Positions 1-49,608 of a stretch of 64,000 bases of DNA are shown one piece after another. The DNA is from Candidatus Saccharimonadales bacterium. Its GTDB lineage: Bacteria; Patescibacteriota; Saccharimonadia; QS-5-54-17. Location of the stretch: assembly GCA_040903985.1 (NCBI GenBank), contig JBBDUI010000002.1, positions 599,633 to 663,632 of the forward strand. Reading direction: 5' to 3'. The notes under the pieces were generated by a model. It saw only the letters and a program-made list of their open reading frames with translations. It was not told the origin of the DNA and did no database searches. How positions within the stretch are numbered: the stretch's first letter is position 1; each line of letters opens with the position of its first letter. A program made the translations under genes and the position numbers.

Positions 1-602
1 GCGGTTTGGGGGTCAATATCGTTTTGGGGATCGTATACGTTCCAGATGCGACAACCCTGTACGATTGAGTCCGAAGAGTACTGCTTAATACCATCGTGGT
101 AGCAATCATAGATATTACAGCCTACAGCAGCGAGTCGCGCATTAGCTGCGGTCCAGTAAATACCGTTCTCGCCCCCGCCGCCGGCACCTACGGCCTGCGA
201 ATGCTGACAGTACCAAGAGATGATTCGGTCGTTGCCGTTATCCCAGCCCGATCCTGCATGAAGGCGGAGCTCACGTTCAAATTTTAGACCCACAAACACT
301 ATCCGAGAACACCCCTCCATGGATAGTCTCTCATTGATAACCACGTTGCCTGGTGTTTCCGCCTTAAGAATCAACCAGTCGTCGTGGGTGGCATCGGCTA
401 GTAGACCGGCGCTATAGGTGCCGTTGGGTATGACTATAGTCTGTCCGCCGCTTTGATCAACGTAGGTTCTAAAATCGGGGCCCAGGTCGAGGGGCTCAGG
501 ATCTCCTGGTCCAGCACTCTGCTCCCACGCTACAGTAGAACCACTTTGAGCATTGACCCAACGGTTATTATCGGGATCGGCAAAGAAAGTATCTAAACTC
601 AT
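1..602 (-). CDS. Partial (C-terminus off window) right-handed beta-helix / pectate-lyase-fold protein, the downstream module of tail-fibre-like gene 599..1174. Its ATG at 602-600 overlaps the upstream TGA (ATGA).
   Basis: Manual translation of the minus strand gives MSLDTFFADPDNNRWVNAQSG...NGIYWTAANARLAAVGCNIYDCYHDGIKQYSSDSIVQGCRIWNVYD, with repeated beta-helix rungs of N-G-hydrophobic and Cys/His ladder residues. The ORF is absent from the track only because it runs off the window edge. Confidence 0.55.
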   Translation of the reverse strand, partial: MSLDTFFADPDNNRWVNAQSGSTVAWEQSAGPGDPEPLDLGPDFRTYVDQSGGQTIVIPNGTYSAGLLADATHDDWLILKAETPGNVVINERLSMEGCSRIVFVGLKFERELRLHAGSGWDNGNDRIISWYCQHSQAVGAGGGGENGIYWTAANARLAAVGCNIYDCYHDGIKQYSSDSIVQGCRIWNVYDPQNDIDPQT

Positions 603-1174
603 TCTGATGGTTTGACGAGACGGTCGCCAGAGTTAATATTAGCAGGAGTGGCGATTCCATTTTCGGGATCGGCCGGGTCTGAAGTATTAGATAGGCCAAC
701 GAAGACAATCGGATTGATTCCAGCTGACCTGGCCGGTGCGTCAGCAGACCAAACACCGGCTGCTGTCTCAATAATTGTAAGGCCCACCAAACTTGTTACT
801 CCGGCTCCGTTGTCAATTTCGGCTTTAGTGTAATAATCGGTGAGATCCGGCGTGGCCTTGAGGGTGTAGTTACCGTCCTCTGTTGTTGGAACCATGTCAT
901 CCGCTGCTTCAGTCGGGTCGGGTAGATTACCCTCACTACTTACGCCGCTCACCATATCATCTACGTACTGCTTAGTAGCGGCGTGAAGATCATTGGCGGG
1001 ATCGTCATTAAGGATGAGTGGGCCGGTTAAGGTGCCACCGTTGATGTCGAGTTTATTATCGATCTCAGCACCGCGTTTAAGTGTTCCATCGGAATTATGT
1101 TCAACGAGAAGATACTCGTTAAGGATATCTCCCCATACTCCTTGATCGGAACCTGGTATTGGTAGGCGCGCCAT
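599..1174 (-). CDS. Tail-fibre-like protein, N-terminal module only (191 aa): conserved leader plus collar motif.
   Basis: N-terminus MARLPIPGSDQGVWGDILNEYL is shared with 5 paralogs. GGTLTGPL...NDLHAATKQYVDD matches the phage tail-fibre / HylP-type collar motif. Confidence 0.7.
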   Translation of the reverse strand: MARLPIPGSDQGVWGDILNEYLLVEHNSDGTLKRGAEIDNKLDINGGTLTGPLILNDDPANDLHAATKQYVDDMVSGVSSEGNLPDPTEAADDMVPTTEDGNYTLKATPDLTDYYTKAEIDNGAGVTSLVGLTIIETAAGVWSADAPARSAGINPIVFVGLSNTSDPADPENGIATPANINSGDRLVKPSE

Positions 1175-1322
1175 AGGCAGTCTCCCCCGTGTTTATTTTC
1201 TAACTGCCTACGCTTATAGACACAAGTGAAGAGACGGGCTTAAGCTGTTGCATTTTAGCTTAATACTCATCTTCACTTTCTAATCTCACTCAGGCTTTAT
1301 GTATCCGATGAGTAAGGGCTTG

Positions 1323-1721
1323 TTAACCATCTAGGGGATCAACAAATCTAAGCTTAGTCCATTCACCAGTTGAGGGCTCATACGAGGCTAAATGTGCGAA
1401 GTAGATGGGCTGTTGCAGATGCTCTGGTATGAACTCTAGATCACCGTCTAGGGTTACCGCTAGGACGTGTTTAACTGTAGCTGCGCTAGGATCAAGGGTG
1501 AGGTTGTGCGTGGTAGCCATCGCGCTACATTTACCCTCTAGCTGATCACAAGTGGTAGCAGGAAGTAAGCTGTTTGATTGCTCAGCCATGAGCTGGCGGC
1601 ACGGGCGTAAGCCGGACAACTCTTGGATTATAACTGTTAGTGATCCATCAGTTACTTCGAAATCGCACCATGGGGTGGGGTGATTAGGATCGCGTCGAGA
1701 GACAATAGTCGAATCTATCAT
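1323..1721 (-). CDS. Hypothetical 132-aa protein whose start is coupled (TAATG overlap) to tail-fibre-like gene 1721..2458. Possibly a C-terminal receptor-binding or chaperone module.
   Basis: ORF with start/stop overlap to the upstream gene. I found no recognisable motif. Confidence 0.45.
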   Translation of the reverse strand: MIDSTIVSRRDPNHPTPWCDFEVTDGSLTVIIQELSGLRPCRQLMAEQSNSLLPATTCDQLEGKCSAMATTHNLTLDPSAATVKHVLAVTLDGDLEFIPEHLQQPIYFAHLASYEPSTGEWTKLRFVDPLDG

Positions 1722-2458
1722 TAGGTGCTCTCCATGGCGATAAGTGATTTACGAACGGCTGAAAAAGTATTATACGCACTGGCTCCAGTGGTAGAGCGAC
1801 TATAAACCTGAGCGAATGCCTGGTCTTGATTATTGGGATGCGCGGCTACTGTAACTACTGGGACTGTATTGAAGGCAGTGGTCCAGGTTACTGATTCGCT
1901 CTGAGCGGAACCGGCTGTAATTTTGGCTTCTATATGTGGTATGGGGGGTAAGTCAGCGTAAGCTAGGGCAGTCCCGGCGCCGTTGACTGTCGGCACTTGA
2001 CCCACTGTACCGATGGGGAGTCGGGTAGTGGTTGTGCCGTTGTGAGTTAAAAGATCACCTGATGTAGTAAGAGGAGTAGCACTCCCAAAAGCTACTCCGC
2101 CGCTTCCATCCGGTTGCAGTACTTTGCTAGCATCAACTTCCGTAGCGGCAAGTGACTCAATAACTAGCTCATCACTACCACCATTCTGGTGGCTAGCGGC
2201 ATGGGCACTAACCCCCAGGCTATCGACGTATCCTTTGGTAGCTGCATCACTATTATCGATAGGATTAGCTAGTCCAATGATGCGGTTACTACCTAAGTTA
2301 AGATTACCGCTCATAGTGCCACCACTTAGATTAAGTTTGGCATCTATATCACCCCCTCGCTTCAAGGTTCCGTCTGAGTCAAGCTCTACTTCAAGAAACT
2401 CATTGAGTATATGGCCCCAGGTTCCTTCATCGGCGCCCGGGATAGGTAATCGTGGCAT
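1721..2458 (-). CDS. Tail-fibre-like protein (245 aa) of the conserved-leader family.
   Basis: MPRLPIPGADEGTWGHILNEFLEVE leader. GGTMSGNLNL...DNSDAATKGYVDSL collar motif. Confidence 0.7.
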   Translation of the reverse strand: MPRLPIPGADEGTWGHILNEFLEVELDSDGTLKRGGDIDAKLNLSGGTMSGNLNLGSNRIIGLANPIDNSDAATKGYVDSLGVSAHAASHQNGGSDELVIESLAATEVDASKVLQPDGSGGVAFGSATPLTTSGDLLTHNGTTTTRLPIGTVGQVPTVNGAGTALAYADLPPIPHIEAKITAGSAQSESVTWTTAFNTVPVVTVAAHPNNQDQAFAQVYSRSTTGASAYNTFSAVRKSLIAMEST

Positions 2459-2729: not shown

Positions 2730-4232
2730 CTAATAGTGGCTAGCCTCTGGGGCTAGGAGCAGAGCCTCGGGCAGAGAATGTGGAAAAGTTATTGTAGATA
2801 GTTGTACGACACTTGTTGAGTAGGGTGTGAAGTACAGCTTGCCGTTAGGAGCTGCACACGCCCCTGAATTACTGATCCCAGAGCCGCTATAGATCTCCTC
2901 GACTTCTCCGGTAATCAAGTCACAAGCCACAAAGGCTGCCGGGACCGCGCTGCGATAGAAGTAGAGTCGTCCATCGTGCCCTAGCGCACCTGATCGGAAT
3001 ACCGCAGTTGTGGCGGGATGGACGAACTCTGCAGTCTGAGTCCACGGGTCAATACGAATATACCCCAGAGTCGCTGCAGTTGAAGAAGAGGGAAACAAAT
3101 ACACTGCACCATCAGGGCCAACACACCCGCCCACCCACTGACGGTTCGATTCCCCTTGAGCTCGGTCAAGCCCATAGTTTGTCTGCCAGGCTTCTTCAGT
3201 CTCGGGATCAATAACCAAGATGCCGTCCAGCGTATTTTGCAGACCATATGGAGCACAGTAGATCAACCCGTCAGGACCGAGCACTCCACCATGATATTTG
3301 AAGGACGCAGGCATATCTAGGCCCGGATCCCACCGCTTGGCGGTCCCTGCCACAGTGTCGATAATCAAGATATCGGTAGCGTTATACGGGATGCCCACAA
3401 TCTTGCCGGTAGCTGTTACTGCTGACCCATACCACTTGCCAGTGCCCGATAGGTCAAGGCCAAAGTTCTCAAGAGTAGCGGTGTTATCAGAAGGGTTAAT
3501 CACCAAGGAGAACTCACTGCTAGAGGGCATAGAGTAGACCTTGCCATCCAGGCCTAGTTGACCGCCCATCCATTTTGTGGAATCTGACATATCTAGTCCG
3601 AAATTTTCGAGAGTTGCCGTGTCGTTTGTCGAATCCACAACGATTACATTGTCGAAATTGCGAGGAAGCATATAGATCCGGCCATCAGGCGTAAGTACGC
3701 CACCACCCTCACATCGCTGACCAAAGGAGACCAAGCCTAGACCGTAGTCATTCATTGTAGCTACAGCAGAGGCTCCCTGTCGACGCAGGCCATGAACGTG
3801 TTGCTTCAGCAGGGAGACATAAGGCCCTTCATCTACCGTGGCAGAGAGAGGGGCCTTATCATCCAGTGCACTCTGGAGCCCGGAGACGGCGGCTATAGTA
3901 TGTACGCTACTGCCACTTGCATGATCGGAGAGTTCACTATCGGTGTAGCTCTCAGCTGTAGCTTCAGCTGCCGCTTGGGCCGCACCCACTAGACTGTCAA
4001 CGTAGGTCTTAGTTACGGCGTCTTGGGGGTCTTCTGGATCGGCTAGTCCGAGAATGCGGTTACTACTAAGTAATAACGGTCCAGTTAGAGTGCCGCCAGA
4101 TAAGCCAAGCTTACTGTCGATGTCACTACTGCGCTTTAGGCTACCGTCTGAATTCAGCTCGACACTCAAGAACTCGTTGAGAATATCACCCCAAACACCT
4201 TTATCCGAGCCAGGTATAGGTAGTCGAGCCAT
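2730..4232 (-). CDS. Tail-fibre-like protein (500 aa) with a C-terminal beta-propeller-like repeat domain.
   Basis: MARLPIPGSDKGVWGDILNEFL leader and GGTLTGPL...DAVTKTYVDSL collar. C-terminal half has about 6-7 repeats of approximately 47 aa with a G-x-L-x-P-D-G-x-I/V-Y-x-x-P pattern. Confidence 0.7.
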   Translation of the reverse strand: MARLPIPGSDKGVWGDILNEFLSVELNSDGSLKRSSDIDSKLGLSGGTLTGPLLLSSNRILGLADPEDPQDAVTKTYVDSLVGAAQAAAEATAESYTDSELSDHASGSSVHTIAAVSGLQSALDDKAPLSATVDEGPYVSLLKQHVHGLRRQGASAVATMNDYGLGLVSFGQRCEGGGVLTPDGRIYMLPRNFDNVIVVDSTNDTATLENFGLDMSDSTKWMGGQLGLDGKVYSMPSSSEFSLVINPSDNTATLENFGLDLSGTGKWYGSAVTATGKIVGIPYNATDILIIDTVAGTAKRWDPGLDMPASFKYHGGVLGPDGLIYCAPYGLQNTLDGILVIDPETEEAWQTNYGLDRAQGESNRQWVGGCVGPDGAVYLFPSSSTAATLGYIRIDPWTQTAEFVHPATTAVFRSGALGHDGRLYFYRSAVPAAFVACDLITGEVEEIYSGSGISNSGACAAPNGKLYFTPYSTSVVQLSTITFPHSLPEALLLAPEASHY

Positions 4233-4782: not shown

Positions 4783-4784
4783 AG

Positions 4785-7989: not shown

Positions 7990-8065
7990 GCGGGTGTAGC
8001 TCAGTTGATAGAGCGCGTCCTTGCCAAGGACGAGGCCACGAGTTTGAGTCTCGTCACCCGCACCA
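7990..8065 (+). tRNA. tRNA-Gly (anticodon GCC).
   Basis: Acceptor GCGGGTG/CACCCGC. Anticodon arm CGTCC-TTGCCAA-GGACG. T-arm ACGAG-TTTGAGT-CTCGT. CCA is encoded. Confidence 0.85.
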
Positions 8066-9580
8066 AAGTTGAGTTTTAGCGCCGTCAGGCGCTTTTTCTT
8101 TTTCCTCAATTACCAAGTTAAAAGGGTAATTCACGGTATATGACAAGTTTTTATCGTTCAGTTTAAGGTTAGAAACTAGGAATCCTAAGAGCTTGGAACG
8201 CTGCCCCTCATCTGCAAGCTGAAACAGCTCTGAAACTCGACTTACTAAATCTAACAGATATGAAGCGGTTACTAAGAAGTCCTTATTCCCTCTGGTTAGA
8301 ACATTTAGCCTATCATTGAGCTGTTGCTGTCTATTTGTTAATGTCTCTACAATTTTATCGTGTTGTTCTGGTGATATTTTTTCATCTACTAGTTTTTCAA
8401 ACCACATTTCAATTTTTTTGTCGATTGAATCATATTCCTCTCGAACTGATAGTAACGACTGTGAGTAATATTTTTGTTGGTCGTCGTGGTTATCTTTTAG
8501 TTCTTTAATAACTTTGTTTAATAGCTTTTCCGGAATATTTATCCTTTTTACAAGAGCTTCCATAGAGCCTAGTACGAGCGATTCTGCGGTGTTGGGGTTG
8601 CTACACTTAGAATTTGCACACTTGAGGTACACCCAACGTTTACACTGGAACGGGGAAATAGTACGACCACACTTACCGCAGCTTAGAATATCGCTAAAAT
8701 TGAAGTTTAGACTATCCCATTTGGTTTTCATTGATTTGCGCTTGTCTTTAATGAGCTGACACCTATTAAACAAGGCTCGGTCTATTAATGGTGCGTAATT
8801 ATGAGGGTAATCTTTTCCTTTCTGAGTCATCATTCCGTAATAAAACTTATTATTAATTATAGCTTCGACAGCCCCTTTGGATAGGGTAGTTTTACCAGTT
8901 TTACTGCTCGTAAAACCAGCTTTTGCTAATTCTTTAGCGATAAGGCTGTACGGCATTCCTATTGCCCTTAGCTCAAACGCTTTTACAATGTAATGCGCTC
9001 TTTGCTCATCGACCACAATATCTTTTAATGGCTTGTTGGGATTACTAGTAGGTATAGATATGTTTTGATATCCTATTGGCGCCCTGTGAACCCATATACC
9101 ATCATTTAACATCTGTTCAAAACGACGCTTTACATTGTCTCGGCTTGAATCGGAATAGTACTTAGCAAGCAGCATTCCTATACCAAGCCTGAATAAGTCT
9201 GTGGCTGGCGAACTAGATGATATGAATAAATTGTCTGATGGAAAATGTAGTTCTATTTTATCTTTTTCCACGAGCTGTCCCATTATTCTCACTTCTCTCT
9301 GTGAGGCGTCACGAGTAAAACGGTCTATTTTATCAAAGACAATTATCGCCTGTTCATTCAAAGACTGGATTTCATCTTCAATCAAAGAAGCGAATTTTTG
9401 CCTGGCGTCCTTGTAGGCACTTTCATCGAACTCATGGTATCGCCATTCTTTGTCTTTATAGTTCAAAGTTCTAGCATAGTTTTCAAGCCGTTGCTTCTGT
9501 GCGGGTAACGCTTTACGTTGCTGCACGTCCGATACCCTAGCGATTAATAGAATTGGTTTTTTATTGGTAGTAGCATTCAT
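8054..9580 (-). CDS. Large serine recombinase (integrase). Its stop codon overlaps the tRNA-Gly 3' end.
   Basis: N-terminal resolvase domain (ILLIARVSD catalytic Ser). Recombinase domain. C-terminal zinc ribbon CGKCGRTISPFQC...CANSKC. 508 aa. Confidence 0.85.
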   Translation of the reverse strand: MNATTNKKPILLIARVSDVQQRKALPAQKQRLENYARTLNYKDKEWRYHEFDESAYKDARQKFASLIEDEIQSLNEQAIIVFDKIDRFTRDASQREVRIMGQLVEKDKIELHFPSDNLFISSSSPATDLFRLGIGMLLAKYYSDSSRDNVKRRFEQMLNDGIWVHRAPIGYQNISIPTSNPNKPLKDIVVDEQRAHYIVKAFELRAIGMPYSLIAKELAKAGFTSSKTGKTTLSKGAVEAIINNKFYYGMMTQKGKDYPHNYAPLIDRALFNRCQLIKDKRKSMKTKWDSLNFNFSDILSCGKCGRTISPFQCKRWVYLKCANSKCSNPNTAESLVLGSMEALVKRINIPEKLLNKVIKELKDNHDDQQKYYSQSLLSVREEYDSIDKKIEMWFEKLVDEKISPEQHDKIVETLTNRQQQLNDRLNVLTRGNKDFLVTASYLLDLVSRVSELFQLADEGQRSKLLGFLVSNLKLNDKNLSYTVNYPFNLVIEEKEKAPDGAKTQLWCG

Positions 9581-9747
9581 GATTATATCCTTTACAAATA
9601 TATTATATTGTTATTTAGTAGTATTTTCTATCGTTTTAGCTTTAGCCTTTTGAGCTAGGTCTATTTGAATGAGTACATCTAGAAATCCTGCAAGGTTCTT
9701 TAAGTCTTTAGGAGTTTCTGTAGATGGATTGTTGGGTTGTTTGGGGG

Positions 9748-10275
9748 TTACCATTTGAAACCCCCGTAATGTGTCGAGAAAATATCCGCAATATTATTCT
9801 CAGTATTTTTTAATTTTGGTCTTTTTAGAACTTCATATTCTTTACTGGTCACTATTGAAGCAGGTACACTCCTCAATTTGTTCTGGTAATCTCCTTGTTT
9901 TCGAGGTAGCTGTGTACAAACTTTTTGGTGTTCGTACAGTTTTATGACACAAGGTATTAGGTCGTATGTGTTAGAAGTTCCTCGCTTATGTCTGCGTTTA
10001 ACGAACTGTTTTTCTTCCAGTTTTCTCAATCGTCTTTGAACGGTTGAATAACCTTTGTGAGAGAACTTGCATAGCCGAGTAATTGACGGGTATACCCGAC
10101 TATTGTGGCTGAACCAAAATGTTAGCAAGTGTATCAGTGTTAATGTCTCACCGTCTGTTAGCCCAAGATGACCCTGGCAAGCTAACAGTAAGTTTGGTAC
10201 CTGAGTGAAGTTAAACTCCTCTATTTCAGGTGACCATTTCTCTGAAAAACCGTATTCCTTGTTATTGGTTTTCAT
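9748..10275 (-). CDS. Winged-helix DNA-binding protein (replication-initiator or regulator-like), island-borne.
   Basis: FTQVPNLLLAC...LTDGETLTLIHLLTF...GYSTVQRRLRKLEEKQFVKR resembles wHTH replication or regulatory proteins of mobile elements. Confidence 0.4.
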   Translation of the reverse strand: MKTNNKEYGFSEKWSPEIEEFNFTQVPNLLLACQGHLGLTDGETLTLIHLLTFWFSHNSRVYPSITRLCKFSHKGYSTVQRRLRKLEEKQFVKRRHKRGTSNTYDLIPCVIKLYEHQKVCTQLPRKQGDYQNKLRSVPASIVTSKEYEVLKRPKLKNTENNIADIFSTHYGGFKW

Positions 10276-10425
10276 CGTATTTTCCTTTGCGATGAAGCCA
10301 GCCCAACGGAACGGTTGTTATTGGTGTTGGGTGGCTTCGTTGCCGTTCCAAACACCACTTTAGACATTAAAAAAGGAGCTGTAATAAAGCTCCTAAATTA
10401 CTCGATTTTAGTCGGTTTTAACTTC

Positions 10426-11283
10426 TTAGGTTGGTAATATTTCTCGGTTTGTTACGGTTTCGTCACGGTTAGATTTTAGCCATTTTTCGAACCACTCAAG
10501 TTGTTCTCCGCTTATCTCTTTCCAAGGGGTGAACCTTATTGTTTTCTGTGTAGTTCTTTCAAAAAATATCTTCTTTAACTCTCTATTGAAGTGGCAGTTT
10601 CTAACAAGTTCACTCAAATCGGTTTTCGTTTTACAGCCTTCAACTTTTTCTTGTATCTCGTGAATGCTTATCGGTCTATCATGATTTTTAAGAATATAAC
10701 GCATGAAGTTATACGGTGGGCTGTCGTATCTGAGTGGCTTGCCAAGTATTACATTTGCCCCTTCGATTAAATCAATACTTGCATACCTAAGTCCGACAGT
10801 TATTAAGTTATTTCGTAAATCAATAAAAATAATTTCTGACCTGTTTTTCTTGGTTTGGGTAGATTTATGTTTTTTATCAGTAAGGACGCTGTCGTGGTAC
10901 TGGTATTTTTCCAAATCTTTCTTTCTAGCTTTGTTTCTCACTGACTCAAAATTGTCCAGAATATTAACTTTATAATTTCTCAAAGACTTCATTTTTCCAA
11001 AAAGATAGTGATAGTCTACGTCAAGAATATCTGCCTTAAACGTTGGGTTGTTCAATGATATAGATCCATCATCTTCTAACTTTTTATTTGGCTTGGTGTA
11101 GGAGTACTTAATACATTCATAATCATCTTGTAATGCGTCTAGAATATATTTCTGGTCTTCAAGTCGTACACCCGCAACGTCCAAGTCCTCTGAGCTGAAA
11201 GATACCTTGTTACCCGATAATGATTCTTGCAGGAACCTATCAATCAGGTTGATTGCGATTAATATTTTTTCACGACCAGTCAT
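10426..11283 (-). CDS. Hypothetical protein (285 aa), island-borne. Possibly Abi-like.
   Basis: ORF only. AT-rich codon usage matches the island. No motif recognised. Confidence 0.35.
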   Translation of the reverse strand: MTGREKILIAINLIDRFLQESLSGNKVSFSSEDLDVAGVRLEDQKYILDALQDDYECIKYSYTKPNKKLEDDGSISLNNPTFKADILDVDYHYLFGKMKSLRNYKVNILDNFESVRNKARKKDLEKYQYHDSVLTDKKHKSTQTKKNRSEIIFIDLRNNLITVGLRYASIDLIEGANVILGKPLRYDSPPYNFMRYILKNHDRPISIHEIQEKVEGCKTKTDLSELVRNCHFNRELKKIFFERTTQKTIRFTPWKEISGEQLEWFEKWLKSNRDETVTNREILPT

Positions 11284-11349
11284 TAGTGTAAATTATACTC
11301 TATAATCCCATTCCTCACTGTTCCGCTCTTAGTTTTTGAATTTTTATTA

Positions 11350-11841
11350 CTAATGAAAACTAGTCGTGTAATGTACGAAAACCACTCGTTTGAGTGATGA
11401 GTTTGGGTGTCTGTCTGCAAAGTCTTCAACAGCTTTTTGAGCTATCATAATCACGTCTTCGTATGGATTGCCGTGTAAGCCTGAGCCTAACGCAGGAAAA
11501 GCCATGGACTCTACACCATAGTCATCTGCAAGTTCTAACGAAGTATAAAAGCACTTATAGAGTATCTTTGGCTCTTTACCTTTATGGTAGCCGTATATAG
11601 GCGCAACTGTGTGTATGACGTATTGAGCTGGTAAGTCGTAGGCTTCGGTAATCTTTGCTTCGCCATAATCACAGCCACCAAGTTCTTTACAGGCATTTGC
11701 TAGTTCGGGTCCTGCGATTGAATGGATTTTACTGTCTACACCACCGCCAGGAATGAGCTGAGTGTTGGCTGCATTCACGATAATATCTGCATGGAGTTTT
11801 GTTATATCCCAATTCATTTCTTCTAGTCTTAATGTACGCAT
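11350..11841 (-). CDS. Stand-alone macro domain protein (ADP-ribose binding or hydrolase).
   Basis: IVNAANTQLIPGGGVDSKIHSIAGPEL and GLHGNPYE motifs are canonical macro-domain signatures. Confidence 0.8.
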   Translation of the reverse strand: MRTLRLEEMNWDITKLHADIIVNAANTQLIPGGGVDSKIHSIAGPELANACKELGGCDYGEAKITEAYDLPAQYVIHTVAPIYGYHKGKEPKILYKCFYTSLELADDYGVESMAFPALGSGLHGNPYEDVIMIAQKAVEDFADRHPNSSLKRVVFVHYTTSFH

Positions 11842-11842
11842 T

Positions 11843-12085: not shown

Positions 12086-12212
12086 TCTGTATAGAAAATT
12101 AGAGGAATGCGAGCCGTAAAGTAGCCTTTCTGAGCTATTCTCAGCCTCTCTACGCTGTGTTTAGTGCAGATTAATAACTATGGACTATAAACAGAGGTGT
12201 TTATAGCGTACA

Positions 12213-16777: not shown

Positions 16778-16788
16778 ATTTGTAAATT

Positions 16789-18261: not shown

Positions 18262-18311
18262 GTTAAACGTAAGCAATATAGTTATCAACCAAACAACGAT
18301 ACAATAATCTT

Positions 18312-40003: not shown

Positions 40004-40987
40004 ATGTCTAGACTTCCTATTCCCGGCTCTGACGATGGAGTCTGGGGAGACATTCTAAACGAATACCTCCAGCACGAGCATAACGAGGATGGTACGCATA
40101 AAACAGTTCCTGTTTCCAGGGGCGGTACCGGTGCTATCAACGCTTCTGCCGCTAGAACAAACTTGGATGCTGCAGCTAGCGATCATAACCACGATGTCGA
40201 TTACGAAGTCGCCGGAGCAGTCTCTACTCATGCTTCCGAGGTTACAAGTGTGCATGGTATCGCTGACACCTCAGTGCTTGAAACTACTACCGGTGCTCAA
40301 GGTAAGGTGGATACCCATGCCTCCGATACAACAAGTGTCCACGGCATAGCCGATACTTCGGTCCTCGAGACTTCAGCCGGTGCTCAAGCAAAAATTGATG
40401 CACACACCGAGGCAAGTGATCCTCACTCTAATTACTTAGATACGACTCGCCATGAGGCTTTAGACCACTCCTCTGTACTTGCTACAGCCGCCTTATCAGA
40501 CCTCGGATCACTGGATGCCGGTTCGAGCAGAATCACAAATATAATCGACCCATCCAGCCCTCAGGACGCCGCAACAAAAGATTATGTAGATACCAATATT
40601 CCTTCAGCATTAAATGACTTGTCTGATGTTGATACTTCGGGCGGATCCGAGGGCGACTCTCTTACTCAGCAGGCTGATGGAACGTTTGCACCGCAGCAAA
40701 ACACGCACCCTACAAGCCTTCGCCCGCATACCTCAACGCTAGGCCCAGTGGCGTACAGGATGTCGAGAACCGGAAAGGATGAAAACGGTATTTTCACTAC
40801 GGTTAACTGGCATCGTCCTGACGACACCCTTGCCGTTCAGTCGGTACTGTCGGGTGGAACAACACCAACCTATACTGCTCGAACAGTTACGGAATATGCA
40901 GCAAATGGTGTCGATGTGTTGGAAACCACGACCTACACGCTTTCTTACGATGGTGACGGTGATCTTATTGCGGAGATATTCGCATGA
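40004..40987 (+). CDS. Tail-fibre-like protein (327 aa) with internal tandem approximately 27-aa repeats.
   Basis: MSRLPIPGSDDGVWGDILNEYL leader. Repeats TSVHGIADTSVLETTTGAQGKVDTHASDT appear twice. ATKDYVDT collar motif. Confidence 0.7.
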   Translation: MSRLPIPGSDDGVWGDILNEYLQHEHNEDGTHKTVPVSRGGTGAINASAARTNLDAAASDHNHDVDYEVAGAVSTHASEVTSVHGIADTSVLETTTGAQGKVDTHASDTTSVHGIADTSVLETSAGAQAKIDAHTEASDPHSNYLDTTRHEALDHSSVLATAALSDLGSLDAGSSRITNIIDPSSPQDAATKDYVDTNIPSALNDLSDVDTSGGSEGDSLTQQADGTFAPQQNTHPTSLRPHTSTLGPVAYRMSRTGKDENGIFTTVNWHRPDDTLAVQSVLSGGTTPTYTARTVTEYAANGVDVLETTTYTLSYDGDGDLIAEIFA

Positions 40988-41646
40988 TTAGTATGCTCGA
41001 CGCACATGGCATCGTTGGCGGCGGAGGTAATGCAGAGAAAGTTCTAATGAGTCAGGCATTTACTGTATCTGGACAGTTCGTCGTACCTAGCGGAGTTACT
41101 GAGATATTAATCTCTGCTATTGGCGCTGGCGGGGGTGGCGGGTATGCCCATAATGGAGGATATGGCTGGTCGATGCGAGGCGGCGGCGGAGGTAGTGGTT
41201 ACTACTTTCCAAAGACTCGATACACCGTTACGCCAGGTATCACTCTGACGGTTACTATTGGCTCGGGCGGGGCAGGCCAATCTAGTGGAAATTCTTCCCC
41301 TGGCCCCGGTGGTAGTACTGTAGTTTCTGGCACGGGAGTATCAATTACTGCTGGCGGAGGAGCAGCGGGTAATGGTGCTGCTGAAGGCAATCCTGGGTCT
41401 GGCACAGGTTCTAGTCACTTTTGGCGGGGTGGGGCGGCTGGACGTGCAGGCTACGTTCAGAACGGCAGTGGTTCTGGTGCAGGCGGAGGTCCGTTAGGTG
41501 GAGCGAGTAAGACGTCGGGAGGCTCGGGCAATGCTGGTGGAGTAGGATCCGGTGGAAGCGGTGGGCATAACTCAACAGGTAGCGGGAGTGTCTACGCTGG
41601 TGGAGCAGGAGGTCGTGGAGAAGTCTTGATTGAGTGGTACGAATAA
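40984..41646 (+). CDS. Gly-rich tail-fibre C-terminal module encoded as a separate ATGA-coupled gene (220 aa).
   Basis: FTVSGQFVVPSGVTEILISAIGAGGGGG...GGAGGRGEVLIEWYE is homologous to the C-terminal half of 20040..21407. Confidence 0.6.
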   Translation: MISMLDAHGIVGGGGNAEKVLMSQAFTVSGQFVVPSGVTEILISAIGAGGGGGYAHNGGYGWSMRGGGGGSGYYFPKTRYTVTPGITLTVTIGSGGAGQSSGNSSPGPGGSTVVSGTGVSITAGGGAAGNGAAEGNPGSGTGSSHFWRGGAAGRAGYVQNGSGSGAGGGPLGGASKTSGGSGNAGGVGSGGSGGHNSTGSGSVYAGGAGGRGEVLIEWYE

Positions 41647-42652: not shown

Positions 42653-43339
42653 ATGTCAGAAACTAACTCACGTCATCAGTCAGCTCAGCATTTTGAGCTA
42701 CACCATGAGGATAATGGTGAGGCTATTGTCTGTATGTCGCATGATAACGAATGCTCGGTTTTAGCGCAGATTGCCGCCGAGTATTCCGATGTTGAGGAAG
42801 AGTTTTTAGCAACTTCAGTAGAGCAGGCTCTGTCTGCTATCGATAATTACATGGAGGGACGGGCGAGCGAGGTATTTCAGGGACTACATATAGTTCTAGG
42901 GGAGGATCTGACTTCGGGTGGTGCGGAAGCGTTACCCGCAGAAAATCGAGTTTTGCTTAATGGTAGAAAGCTATCGATGAGCATAGCTGACATGCGCAAT
43001 ACTCTCGATTCGTATAGTGACGATGAACTGACGGGTGGAAGTATAGATGAGCACGATCCTAGTGGAGCACTGCAGTACACATTAGTACATGAGATGGGGC
43101 ACATATTAGATGAGAGAACTTTGACCGGTGAATCCCGCCATCGAGTAGATGCGGGTGAAAGTCCCACAGCGTATGGCCGTGTACCTGATGAGTGGCATGA
43201 TGAGAAGGATCATGAAGCATTTGCTGAAGGGTTTGCGCACCTAGTTTTCGGAATACCGGTCAGCTCTGTCTTAGAAACTGCCGTCGCGGAAACTATAGAG
43301 TCGCGGCTAGATGAGGTTGACGCCGCTAAGACTCAGTAA
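42653..43339 (+). CDS. Putative HExxH zinc metallopeptidase (start moved to internal Met 42653).
   Basis: TLVHEMGHILDE HExxH motif. Confidence 0.45.
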   Translation: MSETNSRHQSAQHFELHHEDNGEAIVCMSHDNECSVLAQIAAEYSDVEEEFLATSVEQALSAIDNYMEGRASEVFQGLHIVLGEDLTSGGAEALPAENRVLLNGRKLSMSIADMRNTLDSYSDDELTGGSIDEHDPSGALQYTLVHEMGHILDERTLTGESRHRVDAGESPTAYGRVPDEWHDEKDHEAFAEGFAHLVFGIPVSSVLETAVAETIESRLDEVDAAKTQ

Positions 43340-43562
43340 AAGACTGTTTTCTTTTCTGGGTAAGCTTAACATATCTATATATGGAGTAGCTTAGAGTTGC
43401 CACTACGACAACCATTATCAGCCAACCGCCACCAGTAGTCGGCAGGGAGTCCGGTAGAGTAATACCACCCGATTCGGTAGTCTCATTGTACTCTTGTGCC
43501 CCATAGGTGCTGGTGCCATACTGGGAAATCATACGAAGTGCTAAAAGTGTTATCTGATCCAT
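43326..43562 (-). CDS. Small (78 aa) LPxTG-type sortase substrate-like protein.
   Basis: C-terminal LPTTGG, then a hydrophobic stretch WLIMVVVVATLSYSI and a basic tail KLTQKRK. Confidence 0.45.
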   Translation of the reverse strand: MDQITLLALRMISQYGTSTYGAQEYNETTESGGITLPDSLPTTGGGWLIMVVVVATLSYSIYRYVKLTQKRKQSFTES

Positions 43563-43651: not shown

Positions 43652-43828
43652 GTGCCAGGATTAGGATTAACAGAATTACTAGTAATATTAGGTATATTGA
43701 TGCTACTTTTCGGCTCTAAGAAGTTGCCGGAATTAGCGAAGAGCATAGGAAGCTCAGTCCAAGAACTACGCAAGGGAGTGAGTACGGAGCCTAAGAGCGA
43801 CGACTCTAAAGACGATACGACTCTATAG
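43652..43828 (+). CDS. tatA: Twin-arginine translocase subunit TatA/E (58 aa, GTG start).
   Basis: Manual translation gives PGLGLTELLVILGILMLLFGSKKLPELAKSIG, the canonical TatA TM plus FG-KKLP hinge. RBS GAGGGA upstream. Confidence 0.7.
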   Translation: MPGLGLTELLVILGILMLLFGSKKLPELAKSIGSSVQELRKGVSTEPKSDDSKDDTTL

Positions 43829-43853: not shown

Positions 43854-44936
43854 ATGGGTATGAGTAGTGGGACATACCAACAGACGTTACTTGACCATCT
43901 AGTTGAGCTACGTCAGCGTCTGTTTTGGGTGGCATTGACGTTAGTATTCGCATCTGCAGCGGGTTATTTGATATTGGATCAGATAATAGATGTATTGATG
44001 AGTCCTCTGGCCACTGACCAGCCGCTAATTTACACCTCTCCGGCCGGTGGATTGGAGTTTCTGTTTAAGATCTGCTTATTTTTTGGCTTTTTACTGACAA
44101 TACCGGTCCTGCTGTACCACATAATTAAGTTTATCGAGCCGATGATATTTAAGCAGTCGGTGCGCTCACTGATCACTTTGATCAGTGTTTCTATTATACT
44201 GATGGTCCTGGGGGCCAGTTTCGCCTATTTCGTCAGCCTACCGGCGGCGCTGCACTTTCTAACCGGTTTTAATACTGATCAACTACAGGCGTTGCTTTCG
44301 ACGAATGAATACCTATCATTTGTCATGATTTACGTCGCCGGTTTCGCCCTGATATTCCAGCTGCCGTTGCTGATGATATTTATCAATCGAATTAACCCAC
44401 TACAGCCACAGAAGTTATGGTCGACTATGCGTTATGTGATAGTTATCAGTTTTATCGTAGCCGCTATTATCACCCCTACACCGGATCCTATGAACCAGGC
44501 CCTAATGGCTGGTCCAATTATAATTATGTATATCATCGGTGTTGGCGCTGTCTGGTTGATTAATCGGAGTAAGGCAGTGTCGGTTACTGACCCTGATATT
44601 GACCCCAGTTATTTCGACAATCTAACTGAGACGGCTAGTGAATTAAGACCGGAGACTCCGGTAATCGGTCCAAGCCTTTGCGGTGCTAACTCTACTTCAG
44701 TAATAGATTATTCTCAGGCTAACGCTGAGTTACGAACCGAGACATCTAACTTACTTGATTTGACGAGCCGACCCCGAGCGAAACTTCAAGCAGCAGAAAC
44801 TGTTGTGGACTTACCCCTGGTAGTGCCGGGCGCTCCTCTTGCCCCGCATATTGCAGATAGTGATTCTGGGCCAACTGTAAAACCGCCACTCCGACCGCGA
44901 ATAGGGTCGTCTCACGTGCTTGATCCGCGCAGCTAG
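43854..44936 (+). CDS. tatC: Twin-arginine translocase TatC with a roughly 110-aa C-terminal extension.
   Basis: HLVELRQRLFWVAL N-terminus. 6 TM helices. 360 aa against a typical 250. Confidence 0.8.
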   Translation: MGMSSGTYQQTLLDHLVELRQRLFWVALTLVFASAAGYLILDQIIDVLMSPLATDQPLIYTSPAGGLEFLFKICLFFGFLLTIPVLLYHIIKFIEPMIFKQSVRSLITLISVSIILMVLGASFAYFVSLPAALHFLTGFNTDQLQALLSTNEYLSFVMIYVAGFALIFQLPLLMIFINRINPLQPQKLWSTMRYVIVISFIVAAIITPTPDPMNQALMAGPIIIMYIIGVGAVWLINRSKAVSVTDPDIDPSYFDNLTETASELRPETPVIGPSLCGANSTSVIDYSQANAELRTETSNLLDLTSRPRAKLQAAETVVDLPLVVPGAPLAPHIADSDSGPTVKPPLRPRIGSSHVLDPRS

Positions 44937-45021: not shown

Positions 45022-45219
45022 ATGAATTCCAACGACACCAAACAAGCTATTACTAATATAGTTAACACTCCGATGGATCGAAAACAGTTCCTGACCTATG
45101 TCGGCGCCGGCGCAGTAGCGGTATCGGGCATTAATGCCGGACTTAAGCTATTTAGTGGCAACAAAAGAGGTATAGGTACTGTAACTAGTGGTTACGGCGG
45201 TAGCGCTTACGGCGCCTAG
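45022..45219 (+). CDS. Small protein (65 aa) with a Tat-like RK-QFL signal region, directly downstream of tatAC.
   Basis: DRKQFLTYVGAGAVAVSGINA resembles a degenerate twin-arginine motif plus h-region. Confidence 0.3.
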   Translation: MNSNDTKQAITNIVNTPMDRKQFLTYVGAGAVAVSGINAGLKLFSGNKRGIGTVTSGYGGSAYGA

Positions 45220-47155: not shown

Positions 47156-47217
47156 TACTAATCGTTCATTATCACCGTAGAATAAGTATTGATTATGTGA
47201 GAAAAGAGATACAGTAA

Positions 47218-48195
47218 ATGTCAGCACCCTCTTTCGTAAACTCAGCTTACTATAATAGCGGTGGCGGTTTGAATGCCACGGTCAATAAGCCTACCGGTAC
47301 TGGCTCGGGACACCTAATGCTCGCTTTTATTCATACCGGGGGTGACAACCCGACTAGCATAACTGCTCCGTCTGGCTGGTCGACACTACAAAGTCATTTC
47401 GCTCAGTACGTAGGATTTGCGTGCTTCTATAGGTGGGCAGGATCATCAGAACCTTCATCCTATCAGTTTAGTTGGAATAGCAACGGATGGGGTGTAGGCG
47501 GAATCCTGACCTTCTCTTCGGTCGGCTCTATCGGTAGTAGTGCAAAAAATTATACTTCTGGTACGACAGTTAGTGTCAGTGCGCCCTCACTTGCGATGAA
47601 TGCTAATTCGGTACTTGTAGCTGGATTTGGATTTAAGGGTAATGGATCGGTCTCTTCACCTTCCGGTATGACAGAGAGAATCGATGCGCCCCACACAAAT
47701 AACAACTACCCGACTACGCTAGGGGCATCTACGCAAGATTACCTTTCAGCGGCTTCCTCAGGGGCAAAGACAGCGACAATATCCGCATCATCAGACAGAA
47801 GCGCGGCTGTATCGGTAGAGTTACTAGGCACCAACTCTAACCCAGACACACCAACTCTTCTTACCCCGGCTGACAATCTTCGACAGCAGGGCGGGAATGT
47901 AGACTTTAGTTGGTCTCATTCTGATCCAGATGGCAACCCACAAGCCGCCTATGCTCTTCGTCGTCAAAAGATTGGTGATAGCTATGAGTGGTGGAATGGG
48001 TCTAATTGGGTTGCTACTCAAACATTTGTTAGCTCATCTACAGGGTCGGCCACTATTGATGCATCAACGTTTGAGAGAGGTGTGTATACATGGAGCGTTG
48101 CCACTCGTGACAGCATGAATGCTACTAGTGCATATTCTTCGCAGCGGACATTAGAAGTCATTAAGTTTGAACGGTGGGGAGCGGTACAGATTTAA
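47218..48195 (+). CDS. Paralog of 45629..47155: different N-terminal domain, same C-terminal domain (ends FERWGAVQI).
   Basis: Shared C-terminal block FSWSxxDPDG...AYALRRQ...WW.GS.WV...FVS...FE.G.Y.WSV.T.D...YS..Q.L..I.FERWGAVQI. Confidence 0.55.
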   Translation: MSAPSFVNSAYYNSGGGLNATVNKPTGTGSGHLMLAFIHTGGDNPTSITAPSGWSTLQSHFAQYVGFACFYRWAGSSEPSSYQFSWNSNGWGVGGILTFSSVGSIGSSAKNYTSGTTVSVSAPSLAMNANSVLVAGFGFKGNGSVSSPSGMTERIDAPHTNNNYPTTLGASTQDYLSAASSGAKTATISASSDRSAAVSVELLGTNSNPDTPTLLTPADNLRQQGGNVDFSWSHSDPDGNPQAAYALRRQKIGDSYEWWNGSNWVATQTFVSSSTGSATIDASTFERGVYTWSVATRDSMNATSAYSSQRTLEVIKFERWGAVQI

Positions 48196-48318
48196 GGTAC
48201 TTATCTGTTGTTTGTGTTGGTTATACATAGTAAAATAGACGCAAGCGTGAAGACCTACATATTCTTCTGGTAGTGCGCTCCAATAATATTTACTAAAAAC
48301 TAAAAGCAAGGGATAGAG

Positions 48319-49608
48319 ATGCCACGTTTACCGATACCGGGTTCTGATGAAGGAACATGGGGTGACCTCCTCAATGAGTTTCTTGAGGTAGAACATAGTG
48401 CTGACGGTACTCTAAAACTCACCGATACTATAGCTAGTAAATATGTGAAGCCCACTTCCGGTATTCCGAAGTCAGATCTAGCCGCCCCGGTTCAGTCTTC
48501 ACTTGATGCGGCCGATGCCGCAGCGGCACAATCGGCTTTGGATGATCATGTTAACGACACTTCGGCCGCCCATGCTGCTTCAGCTGTTTCATTTGCGCCA
48601 GCTGGTGCTATCTCGGCTACTACGGTGCAGGCGGCTATTGAAGAAGTGGCAACGGAAGCAGGCTCTTCGATCACTTTATCTGATGCTAGCCCTTCAGCCC
48701 TAGCAGCGGCCGCAGCTGCTGGTGTGTCAAATGAGATATCTCGCCATGACCATGTCCATCCCGATACCGGTTTAGCTACTGAGACGGCTCTCGATAGCCA
48801 TACTACTGCTACCACTGGCGTGCATGGTATTGCGGATACATCAGTACTTGAGACTAGTACCGGTGCTCAGACTAAAGTTGACGCCCATGCTGGAGACACT
48901 ACCGCCGTGCACGGTATTGCCGATACTTCAGTATTAGAGACGACCACTGGAGCACAGGCTAAGGTAGACGTACATACTGGAGACGGCGTTGATGCCCATG
49001 CTGCTACAGCTATCTCTTATGATAATACGGCCTCAAGTCTAACTGCTACTGACAGCCAAGCGGCTATCGATGAGTTAGTAACTACGTTATCCAGCACTCA
49101 ATTAGCCGACCTCGCCGATGTGGTTGAGACTGCTGCAAGCGATGGGCAGGTTTTAACCTTTGACACCACCAACGGTTGGCAGCCAGAGACTCCAGCAGTC
49201 GGGATAACCAGTCATAGCGGCTTAAGCGATCTTGGAGCTGATGATCATCTCCAGTACCAGATCGCCGATATAGCGCAGTTTGCTAGGGAGGGCACTCTAT
49301 CGGTGGCTAGTGGACGTGGCCGCTACCGTTTTCCTTATACTGCTACTATCTTGGGTGTCTCAGCCGCCGTCGATACGGCGCCGGTTGGATCCGGGATAAC
49401 GATCGATGTGAACAAGAACGGCACCACTATCTACACCACTCAGGGCAACCGTCCTAGTGTAAGTGATGGAACTAACGATGCTGCTGAGACTACACCGGAT
49501 GTCACTGCCGTGGCTAGTGGTGATCATTTAACAGTAGATATCGATACGGTTGGCTCATCTACTCCGGGAGCGGATTTGACGGTTTTCGTCCGTTATGCAC
49601 GAGCCTAA
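48319..49608 (+). CDS. Tail-fibre-like protein (429 aa) of the conserved-leader family.
   Basis: MPRLPIPGSDEGTWGDLLNEFLEVE leader. The same approximately 27-aa repeats (TTGVHGIADTSVLETSTGAQTKVDAH) as in 40004..40987. Confidence 0.7.
   Translation: MPRLPIPGSDEGTWGDLLNEFLEVEHSADGTLKLTDTIASKYVKPTSGIPKSDLAAPVQSSLDAADAAAAQSALDDHVNDTSAAHAASAVSFAPAGAISATTVQAAIEEVATEAGSSITLSDASPSALAAAAAAGVSNEISRHDHVHPDTGLATETALDSHTTATTGVHGIADTSVLETSTGAQTKVDAHAGDTTAVHGIADTSVLETTTGAQAKVDVHTGDGVDAHAATAISYDNTASSLTATDSQAAIDELVTTLSSTQLADLADVVETAASDGQVLTFDTTNGWQPETPAVGITSHSGLSDLGADDHLQYQIADIAQFAREGTLSVASGRGRYRFPYTATILGVSAAVDTAPVGSGITIDVNKNGTTIYTTQGNRPSVSDGTNDAAETTPDVTAVASGDHLTVDIDTVGSSTPGADLTVFVRYARA

Follow-up and report, generated by a model that had tools for sequence, protein, structure and literature searches.

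The window analysed here, a stretch of 64,000 nucleotides from a Candidatus Saccharimonadales bacterium (contig JBBDUI010000002.1, positions 599,633–663,632), contains six genes whose products share a nearly identical N-terminal leader, followed in most of them by modules of the phage tail-fibre type. The leader defines a family that is not a member of any curated family and that would belong with the cell-domesticated phage receptor-binding protein (RBP) families of bacteria living on bacteria. On balance, we favour the reading that its members are cell-owned, chromosomally encoded, RBP-like fibres or spikes of Saccharimonadales, in which the leader would act as a docking peptide, and that they were captured from phages and domesticated for host binding.

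Each protein consists of three parts. The first is an invariant N-terminal module of ~33 residues, predicted to comprise a Pro-rich arm (RLPIPGSD), an amphipathic helix (WGxILNxFL) and DG[ST]LK; the second is a stack of fibre modules of the trimeric type (HylP-type collar, BppL_N, DUF5907, collagen), and the third an exchangeable distal domain predicted to serve for binding or for carbohydrate degradation. In many cases genes for leaderless distal subunits lie just downstream, as in branched phage RBP complexes, and the leader would be the common docking peptide that ties every paralogue to one conserved partner. The captured modules would be domesticated to recognise, bind and locally digest the host envelope. 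Since the leader also heads tail spikes of a few actinophages, phages of the actinobacterial hosts are the most likely source from which the module set was taken; cultivated Saccharibacteria are epibionts of Actinobacteria (PMC10633639), and for bacteria with this way of life capture from the phages of their hosts would be the simplest origin.

The family may bear on the question how Saccharibacteria, or epibionts of the candidate phyla radiation (CPR) in general, recognise and hold specific hosts, for which the candidates put forward so far are type IV pili and a few adhesins (PMC10633639). A family that is huge, turns over rapidly, is built from phage RBP modules and has its leader in common with actinophage spikes is a testable candidate for a determinant of host range. 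It might be possible to pair its variable tips with glycans of the host cell wall, and the leader provides a one-line search key, such as the pattern MGNYTNCCNNNNCCNGRNNNNGAYNNNNNNNNNTGGGRNNNNNTNYTNAAY, for cataloguing the family in any metagenome.

The leader peptide and the modules behind it

The six leader genes of the window are the following.

599–1174, minus strand: leader gene 1, 191 aa; leader, collar (GGTLTG…HAATKQYVD) and a short tail
1721–2458, minus strand: leader gene 2, 245 aa; leader, collar and a unique C-terminal part
2730–4232, minus strand: leader gene 3, 500 aa; leader, collar and seven G-x-[DNT]-G-x-[IVL]-[YV] repeats
20040–21407, plus strand: leader gene 4, 455 aa; leader, collar and a distal Gly_rich_2 domain (phrog_863)
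40004–40987, plus strand: leader gene 5, 327 aa; leader, a GGTGA…AR-x-NL motif, HGIADTSVLET repeats and a collar at residues ~170–197
48319–49608, plus strand: leader gene 6, 429 aa; leader with a KYVKPTSGIPKSDL extension, HGIADTSVLET repeats and a C-terminal domain matching phrog_27064, without a collar

An earlier note, made from the letters of the window, had pointed out these six genes, and all of them are confirmed as open reading frames (ORFs) on the strands given. A six-frame motif scan, as well as a degenerate DNA pattern (R-L-P-x-P-[GD]-x-D-x3-W-[GD]-x-x-L-N, with six matches in the window vs none in 100 shuffles), finds exactly six leader-bearing ORFs and no seventh. Their leaders follow the consensus M-[PAS]-R-L-P-I-P-G-[SA]-D-x-G-[TV]-W-G-[DH]-[IL]-L-N-E-[FY]-L-x-x-E-x-x-x-D-G-[ST]-[LH]-K, with 19 invariant columns and a mean column identity of 81% over 36 residues. 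In pairwise comparisons the amino-acid identity of the leaders is 0.77, whereas the identity at third codon positions is 0.38, and the same codon is used at 32% of the identical residues. Conservation of the protein but not of the third positions indicates long-standing purifying selection rather than recent duplication or gene conversion. No conservation of the upstream DNA was found in an alignment of the leader DNA together with the preceding 120 nt; this, with the scrambled synonymous sites, rules out a shared promoter, a 5' element, or a DNA or recombination cassette.

The leader has no match in Pfam, NCBIfam, PHROGs or the PDB, and because no curated model covers it, the genes of the family are currently annotated as hypothetical proteins. 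As had been stated before, it contains neither a signal peptide nor a transmembrane (TM) segment, and none was found elsewhere in the six window proteins (maximum 19-residue Kyte-Doolittle mean at most 1.4 in all of them). Its assignment to the signals of the twin-arginine translocation (Tat), Sec or type IV pilin pathways, or to the LXG/WXG class, was considered and rejected. The extreme conservation of the leader across otherwise unrelated paralogues fits a common physical partner.

A family member found on a Logan contig (P0121, 523 aa) carries three tandem leader modules of ~40 residues each (SLPTVGGSSGxWGTxLNNWLLVAHNxDGTLK) before a GHL15 glycosyl-hydrolase-like domain, and the module is repeated inside the protein also in P0212 and P0123. 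Three leaders in tandem fit a docking site that takes three leaders, as from a trimeric fibre, and P0121 may be a single-chain mimic of such a trimeric N terminus, although its AlphaFold model, calculated without an alignment, is uninformative (pLDDT 35).

The earlier note had described each leader as continuing into a collar. The collar follows the leader directly in four of the six proteins; in leader gene 5 it is displaced towards the middle of the chain, and in leader gene 6 it is absent. The motif itself, GGT[ML][TS]G…DA[AV]TKxYVD, is present, with the variant HAATKQYVD in leader gene 1. Its attribution to the HylP/tail-fibre type of phages is correct: in a profile search of the PDB it matches the HylP hyaluronidases 2dp5 and 2c3f (E 2e-5), and the tail-fibre families of PHROGs match the window proteins over the collar only (E 1e-5 to 1e-17). 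The Pfam model Phage_T7_tail stays below its threshold on these proteins (13–21 bits vs a cut-off of 25.2).

Beyond the collar the proteins had been regarded as unrelated, a view that has to be given up, since their distal parts are mosaic. The products of leader genes 2 and 4 are 42% identical over 209 residues, those of leader genes 5 and 6 have a repeat module of 187 residues in common (41% identity), and the Gly-rich C terminus of leader gene 4 is 39% identical to a separate leaderless gene (40984–41646), so that this distal module is fused in one case and forms a subunit of its own in the other. The repeats of leader gene 3 are read as a propeller-like domain (DUF6923, 29.6 bits vs a cut-off of 27). 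No full-length homologue of leader gene 2 other than itself was found among 5.8 billion proteins, which illustrates the turnover of the family.

That the distal domains are swappable, as proposed from the window, is evident both from a Pfam census and from the turnover of cassettes between strains. The census covered 118 family representatives, with 25 families listed, among them BppL_N (21 members), DUF5907 (17), Pect-lyase (11), Collagen (8), Beta_helix (7) and Gly_rich_2 (4), as well as End_N_terminal (endosialidase N-extension), T4 Gp10_C, GDSL lipase, GH5, GH39, CBM5_12, LamG, fn3, Mtd_N, GHL15 and cellulase. The modules are arranged in series behind the leader, with BppL_N or DUF5907 at residues ~78–110. 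Turnover is seen in four metagenomic contigs (L081–L084, 6001–10100) that carry a 100% identical mini-protein gene and differ in the cassette that extends from it up to tatC. The cassette consists of one leader gene in L081 and L082, and of two leader genes flanking a 725-aa Laminin_G_3 gene in L083; in L084 a leader remnant of 25 codons is followed by a 504-aa Laminin_G_3 gene and then by a full-length leader gene. As regards the idea that the genes are targets of diversity-generating retroelements, a reverse transcriptase is found near one locus only (L092), and Mtd_N in one of the 118 members.

Two known classes were considered for the family and rejected. In the case of polymorphic toxins, the C-terminal domains are of fibre, lectin or glycan-active types, the genes downstream code for large proteins of the beta-helix or Gly-rich kind, and the 25 families listed for the 118 members do not include a toxin family. 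In the case of trimeric autotransporter adhesins, there is no signal, and the YadA-type anchor is absent from the window proteins and from the 25 listed families; one JGI record calls a relative a 'trimeric autotransporter adhesin', a name that reflects shared collar-like motifs only.

Several leaderless genes accompany the leader genes in the window.

1–602, minus strand: N-terminal ~200 residues of a leaderless 339-aa protein with parallel beta-helix-like repeats, as judged by sequence motifs only
1323–1721, minus strand: leaderless ORF, 132 aa, between leader genes 1 and 2, without a family match
40984–41646, plus strand: leaderless Gly_rich_2 protein, 220 aa
45629–47155, plus strand: leaderless gene, 508 aa, without a signal peptide, between the tat locus and leader gene 6
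47218–48195, plus strand: leaderless gene, 325 aa, without a signal peptide, also between the tat locus and leader gene 6

The first of these, for which no Pfam match is on record, crosses the edge of the window, and its start overlaps the stop of leader gene 1 by 4 nt. The whole gene is contained in L094 (10573–11592), and the next gene outside the window is also leaderless (232 aa); leader gene 1 is probably an adaptor for these downstream genes. The start of the second abuts the stop of leader gene 2, and the start of the third overlaps the stop of leader gene 5, which suggests translational coupling. The last two have a C-terminal domain of 121 residues in common (55% identity), and the longer one gives a weak match to Ig_Rha78A_N; they may be partner subunits, with their membership uncertain.

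In an exhaustive search, a hidden Markov model (HMM) of the 36-residue leader alone retrieves 6,071 clusters (formed at 50% identity) with E ≤ 1e-3, of which 2,789 reach E ≤ 1e-10, and the leader is N-terminal, starting at residue 1–5, in 146 of the 150 best clusters. A scan of GTDB (one genome per species) gave 151 confirmed leader sites, mostly in metagenome-assembled genomes (MAGs) of Saccharibacteria. The leader is thus conserved well outside the window, a point on which the earlier note had staked its proposal. The 79 leader-centred GTDB loci considered below, also mostly from Saccharibacteria MAGs, contain 96 leader ORFs of 40 to 1,588 aa, in tandem arrays of up to five. A well-populated subfamily of ~97-aa proteins (P0026–P0117; L064 7592–7888) combines the leader with KGGTGAT..AR-x-NLG and a C-terminal beta unit, LWIQTGLGxxGxDMTFWVEDG. 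Behind the genes of short leader proteins, a leaderless gene of beta-helix-like type is often found in overlap (L092 10001–11139), and these short proteins may act as adaptors.

Some of the loci carry labels of other bacterial groups, namely Verrucomicrobiia, Bacillota, Limnocylindrales and Levyibacteriota (L019, L036, L049, L073). Housekeeping genes at the loci labelled Bacillota and Verrucomicrobiia are 65–81% identical to those of Saccharibacteria loci, and TatC at the loci labelled Limnocylindrales and Levyibacteriota is at least 50% identical to TatC of the window, so these labels are unreliable and the contigs are probably mis-binned or mislabelled Saccharibacteria. The origin of the GC-0.62 loci L027 and L063 (Microbacteriaceae MAGs) and of L067 (Anaerolineae) is ambiguous. 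In the literature we found no paper on the leader, on a tail-fibre-like family of Saccharibacteria or Patescibacteria, or on the Tat-signal mini-protein.

Chromosomal context and relation to phages

The genes of the family are chromosomal and do not lie in prophages. Their surroundings in the window comprise a PAS histidine kinase with a response regulator, tRNAs, LemA, an M48 peptidase, ligA, trmD, sodN, tatA, tatC, comEC and a P-type ATPase, and the 10 kb beyond each end of the window are occupied by housekeeping genes (uvrABC, secG, and genes of glycolysis and of the pentose-phosphate pathway). The absence of phage structural genes from the vicinity, asserted earlier for the window, extends to the 10 kb beyond either end, about 84 kb of the 739-kb contig having been inspected. 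Head, portal, terminase, tape-measure and baseplate PHROGs are also absent among the 25 families, each with at most two members, that are listed for 148 dereplicated neighbours (±2 genes) at the 79 loci, and phage structural families were not seen in ~10 Pfam-annotated metagenome contexts. Location of the genes inside prophage or tailocin clusters, which would have made them ordinary phage fibres, was thus observed neither in the inspected DNA of the source genome nor at the 79 related loci. Host-encoded reuse of a tail-fibre scaffold, as proposed in the earlier note, is supported; surface display and adhesion would go with it.

Among viruses the leader is very rare. The degenerate DNA pattern, which matches essentially every leader gene in 94 loci, matches 2 of the 2.9 M contigs of IMG/VR. 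By tblastn, 6 of 50,697 phage genomes carry the leader, and no plasmid out of 72,556 does. All matches in phage genomes belong to Streptomyces phages (BRock, GiJojo, pSt2308, Alone3, LuckySocke), and the second of the IMG/VR matches is a GC-0.62 viral contig of unassigned host (IMGVR_UViG_3300047160_020923; L103). Both IMG/VR matches are high-GC and actinophage-like, and are not CPR phages.

The actinophage leaders, present in one copy per phage genome, are 52–67% identical to the family leader over residues 1–33. In BRock-type phages the leader gene lies inside a tRNA array, near a gene for a minor tail protein, and BRock gp186 is 36% identical to the product of leader gene 6 over 130 residues (E 3e-21), including the KYxKPxxGIPxSDL extension. 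GiJojo gp34 consists of a leader and a beta-helix (pectate-lyase-like) body. In the viral contig L103 the leader heads a tail spike of 1,292 aa, whose gene belongs to a series of genes for spikes and collagen-like fibres with an endolysin gene at its end. For the three small ORFs located upstream of this spike there is no homologue in the Saccharibacteria loci examined, and no homologue of the Tat-signal mini-protein was found in the phage loci examined. The leader is therefore not purely cellular, as it heads a few actinophage tail spikes, which adds a caveat to the earlier note. Judged by these homologies, a rare class of actinophage spikes carries it as an N-terminal element, and in the chromosomes of Saccharimonadales this element has been enormously expanded.

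The coding sequence deposited for BRock gp186 (L090 8791–9738) begins 210 nt upstream of the Met that opens the leader, and a tRNA-Lys (8845–8918) overlaps with it. Going by the conserved leader, we would place the true start at locus position 9001.

In a different interpretation, which we consider quite unlikely, the products would be fibres or spikes belonging to a prophage, a tailocin or a particle resembling a gene transfer agent (GTA) encoded elsewhere in the genome, with the leader plugging into its baseplate. The genes for the fibre and head spike of the Rhodobacter GTA lie apart from its main cluster in this manner, and a distant particle would be compatible with the limited part of the contig that was inspected. 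All modules of the family are of the phage RBP type, the leader is present in six Streptomyces phages and heads a tail spike in a genuine fibre-plus-endolysin module, and the layout of a fibre with a leaderless subunit resembles branched phage RBPs. However, no phage structural gene is seen in the window, in its flanks, among the listed neighbour families or in the annotated metagenome contexts, and the leader is essentially absent from IMG/VR, where both matches are actinophage-like. Six copies are found within the 64 kb of the window, out of a genome of 0.74 Mb, and variants of the family number in the thousands. The leader genes also have a host-like GC content, unlike the adjacent integrated island; leader gene 4, which lies immediately outside that island, has a GC of 0.54.

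Some points nevertheless weigh against the reading of the family as cell-owned fibres domesticated for host binding. That its members are trimeric, lie at the surface, bind the host and digest glycans, that they were taken from phages of the host, and how they are exported, are all matters of inference. The leader could have a partner of the virion type, as it does head a virion tail spike in one clear phage module. The AlphaFold2 model of a 97-aa leader mini-protein with 33 homologues, in which a coil (residues 1–12) is followed by a helix (13–25), is of low confidence (pLDDT 65), and the spread of the family beyond Saccharibacteria is not secure.

Tat genes and two mini-proteins beside the leader genes

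Leader genes are linked to the genes of the Tat system, which in the window are flanked by genes for two mini-proteins.

43326–43562, minus strand: YG mini-protein, 78 aa, with a QYGTSTYGAQEY motif, an acidic linker, LPTTG, a TM segment and a KRK tail; divergent from tatA
43652–43828, plus strand: tatA, 58 aa, with a GTG start
43854–44936, plus strand: tatC, 360 aa, with Pfam TatC over residues 14–221, the remaining ~140 aa being a non-conserved C-terminal tail
45022–45219, plus strand: Tat-signal mini-protein, 65 aa, with …MDRKQFL, an h-region and …SGYGGSAYGA

When the ORFs of the 79 leader-centred loci are clustered, TatC is the commonest neighbour family, followed by a mini-protein of ~65 aa and then by TatA. 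In HMM scans tatC together with tatA is present in 23 of the 79 loci, compared with 1.2–2.1 expected from random sampling of 0.6–1.0-Mb genomes (P ≤ 1e-16), and dereplication at 70% TatC identity leaves 17 tat-linked lineages. The usual order is tatA, tatC, mini-protein and leader gene or genes, with inverted and interleaved orders also occurring, and leader proteins of many C-terminal types are found there. In many cases less than 700 bp separate the tat genes from the nearest leader gene, and the Tat-signal mini-protein is often encoded 0–150 bp upstream of the latter.

The Tat-signal mini-proteins form a family of ~65 aa with an n-region [STD]R[RKAT][EDQK]F[LI], an h-region and a C-terminal GYG-x-S-x-YG motif. 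They have no Pfam match and nearly always adjoin tatC. The member in the window is the only ORF there with a Tat-like motif in its first 45 residues, in a greedy set of non-overlapping ORFs of at least 60 aa. Others are found in L009, L014, L028, L033–L035, L037, L039, L041, L046, L048, L049, L056, L059, L062, L066, L069, L072, L073, L075, L078, L081–L088 and L098–L101. The NCBIfam model NF038009, 'twin-arginine translocation system-associated protein', scores 45.5 bits against the window mini-protein and 48–73 bits against its relatives, below the curated cut-off of 100, so that the mini-protein is a relative of that family and not a member. The two are alike in length (the profile has 70 positions) and can be aligned over their whole length, with E values of 7e-12 to 1e-20 in three members; the name of NF038009 implies the same adjacency to tat genes, with no recorded link to fibre proteins.

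Viewed from the side of the mini-protein, four of six independent families have a leader gene within 6 kb, in two of them directly downstream. L027, L063 and L067 have a mini-protein homologue next to a leader gene and lack tatC within 10 kb. In L067, a GC-0.59 contig labelled Anaerolineae, the homologue is a 126-aa protein (9571–9951) that combines a Tat signal of canonical type (TRRAFLK) with a GTAYGSGLYGQG motif and a dockerin-like C terminus; the leader gene, whose product has a pectate-lyase-like body, follows 32 bp downstream.

The YG mini-proteins are characterized by an N-terminal YG-x-G-x-Y[GN] motif, a Thr/Ser-rich linker, LPTTG or L-x-[DN]-T-G, a TM segment and a basic tail, that is, by a putative sorting signal of the sortase type. 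Relatives occur beside tat loci in at least 15 other loci, among them L009 (206–577), L028 (9573–9923), L039 (9691–9933), L041 (12384–12596), L042/L054 (~8700–9010), L056 (8371–8652), L075 (8347–8622), L078 (4358–4570), L081 (5656–5919), L085 (4437–4808), L098 (7144–7644) and L100 (1732–1935). The LPXTG_anchor model TIGR01167 gives them 13–15 bits, below its cut-off of 15.9; a Sec signal is present in some members only, and a sortase gene adjoins the YG mini-protein in a single lineage (L081). The Tyr-Gly motif is common to both kinds of mini-protein. A glycosyltransferase of the GT4 family (~388 aa; Glycos_transf_1, with a weak GT4-conflict match) recurs at a distance of a few genes from tatC, mini-protein or leader genes (L009, L021, L030, L035, L046, L066, L088, L098), and may glycosylate the fibres or the YG peptides.

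These mini-proteins also bear on the option, named in the earlier note, of a secreted effector family. The leader proteins would then be released depolymerases or bacteriocin-like effectors that attack the envelope of the host or of competitors and leave the cell, for example, by lysis of some cells or in vesicles, and the leader would be a tag for export or assembly rather than an anchor. Many members do have domains of catalytic type (pectate-lyase beta-helices, GDSL lipase, GH5, GH39, GHL15, cellulase), and no anchoring motif is present in the six window proteins. Many others, however, are non-catalytic and purely fibre- or lectin-like (collagen, Gly-rich, propeller, LamG), and a common physical partner would fit with the leader being so strongly conserved among paralogues that are otherwise unrelated. 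Mini-proteins with a putative membrane anchor (Tat-signal) or LxxTG anchor are, moreover, encoded alongside. We regard release as unlikely.

For the cell-owned fibres of the preferred reading, we tentatively propose a Tat route in which a mini-protein would be the partner of the leader in export, in anchoring or in both. Tat is the one general route known for folded proteins, and in phages, fibres of this type fold and trimerise in the cytoplasm. The leader proteins, lacking a signal peptide, would likewise fold in the cytoplasm, and would reach the surface or stay there by means of the adjacent TatA/TatC translocase, in a hitch-hiker or an anchor arrangement. Because they have no signal peptide and should fold in the cytoplasm, Tat accepts folded cargo, and hitch-hiking is known, a mini-protein is proposed as the partner of the leader, either the NF038009-like Tat-signal mini-protein or the LxxTG-anchored YG mini-protein, or both. 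The tatA–tatC locus, listed in the earlier note merely as a neighbouring core gene, would in this way become a concrete, if still tentative, candidate for export. The C-terminal tails of TatC were also considered as a docking site and dropped, being of variable length and not conserved in sequence.

Precedents exist for such export. In Escherichia coli, HybC, a subunit without a signal, is exported together with HybO, which bears the twin-arginine signal. Signal-less folded subunits of PaoABC are also exported as Tat hitch-hikers (PMC4273604), and anchored proteins integrated by Tat are a related case (PMC10924467). The leader proteins resemble hitch-hikers in being signal-less, in their expected folding in the cytoplasm, and in being encoded beside tatAC and a nearly bare Tat-signal protein. 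The known hitch-hikers, in contrast, form one-to-one redox-enzyme complexes with sizeable signal-bearing subunits, whereas here one signal-bearing peptide of ~65 aa would serve a whole multigene family by way of the common 33-aa leader.

We can speculate further that the leader is a universal docking peptide, by which trimeric phage-derived fibres would be exported through Tat in trans on a detachable signal of ~65 aa and displayed on the anchored YG mini-proteins, although in this full form the model appears doubtful. The mini-protein would consist of a twin-arginine signal peptide and the GYGxSxYG motif, and would perhaps be an anchor as well; the epibiont would find and grip its host with the receptor-binding proteins of the host's own phages. 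Tat is not universal in Saccharibacteria, and a true Tat link would explain why environmental Saccharimonadales keep this system (PMC6031116). It would also represent a new mode of export, with one trans-acting signal peptide for many cargoes, and in the trans-acting form of the model the mode would be categorically new.

The Tat neighbourhood could also be coincidental, arising from an ancestral recombination hotspot or an island of envelope genes, with export, if any, by another route. This is possible to about the same degree as the Tat route itself, and is compatible with the general claim about the family though not with Tat export. Several observations speak for it and against the Tat route. 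No tat gene is found within 10 kb in 70% of the leader-centred loci, and the leader, with its one Arg and without an h-region, does not resemble a Tat signal. Since the TatC proteins of these loci are all at least 40% identical, part of the linkage could be due to inherited synteny or to a recombination hotspot; cassettes turn over between strains exactly at the tat site, and tRNA genes and the integrated island lie near other leader copies. Two of the six mini-protein families have no leader gene nearby, and, given its relatedness to NF038009, the mini-protein may simply be a component of the Tat system. On the other hand, the linkage persists down to 40–50% TatC identity in spite of changes in order, orientation and type of leader protein, and gene order so diverged is normally kept only for functionally linked genes. 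Coincidence also fits poorly with the mini-proteins that lie beside leader genes at the three loci without tatC, and with the absence of a signal peptide from proteins for which Tat, as the known general route for pre-folded cargo, would be suited.

Related systems and other features of the window

The closest functional analogue would be the mosaic adhesive trimer (MAT) fibre family of Bdellovibrio bacteriovorus, which consists of 21 dispersed, phage-fibre-like members with a conserved cell-proximal end that serves for retention on the cell, and with mosaic, swappable tips formed by lectin, TNF-like and beta-sandwich domains (PMC10769870). Both are dispersed, cell-encoded multigene families of fibres in bacteria that live off bacteria, with a conserved end and mosaic tips. 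MATs are characterized by a Sec signal peptide and a conserved domain of ~130 aa that is rich in beta structure (PMC10769870), whereas the leader family has no signal and no hydrophobic N terminus, and its conserved part is limited to 33–35 residues, essentially the 33-aa leader. MATs belong to a Gram-negative predator, the leader family to a CPR epibiont. An S74 chaperone-protease domain forms the end of many MATs; the 25 families listed in the census of the leader family do not include it. No Tat linkage has been reported for MATs, in contrast to the leader family, which is linked to Tat and to two YG mini-proteins and has direct homologues heading actinophage spikes.

Similarity to virion proteins is found module by module. 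The streptococcal prophage HylP proteins (2dp5, 2c3f) have the collar motifs KLNL-GG-x-[ML]TG-x-L and D-x-x-x-x-[DH]AATK-x-YVD in common with the family. To BppL of the lactococcal phage TP901-1 it is related by BppL_N at residues ~78–97 in 21 of the 118 members, as well as by a modular build with a variable distal end. HylP and BppL are virion components encoded in tail modules and have no leader, whereas the genes of the leader family lie among housekeeping genes and their leader precedes the collar. Fibre modules typical of virion fibres are thus present in the family, but location in a phage tail module is seen only in the viral contig L103. The leader-bearing proteins of actinophages, none of which has been characterised, contain true homologues of the leader and have beta-helix or spike-like bodies; they are phage-borne and very rare compared with the thousands of cellular copies.

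Two further regions of the window are of interest in their own right. Next to comEC lie genes for a Lamin-tail-domain protein with an N-terminal signal sequence (51518–53101, minus strand), a Cas2-like PaaX_M protein (53213–53689, minus strand), near which no CRISPR array was noticed, and a GmrSD_C nuclease (55215–55973, minus strand). A low-GC island at 7990–19800 (GC 0.36–0.40 vs ~0.50 elsewhere) starts at a tRNA-Gly and has the appearance of an integrated defence island. It encodes a large serine recombinase, a DnaD-like helix-turn-helix (HTH) protein, a Macro-domain protein, Abi_alpha, HARE-HTH/PD-(D/E)XK and DUF2779 proteins, as well as a 1,031-aa restriction-modification enzyme of the MmeI/Eco57I type.

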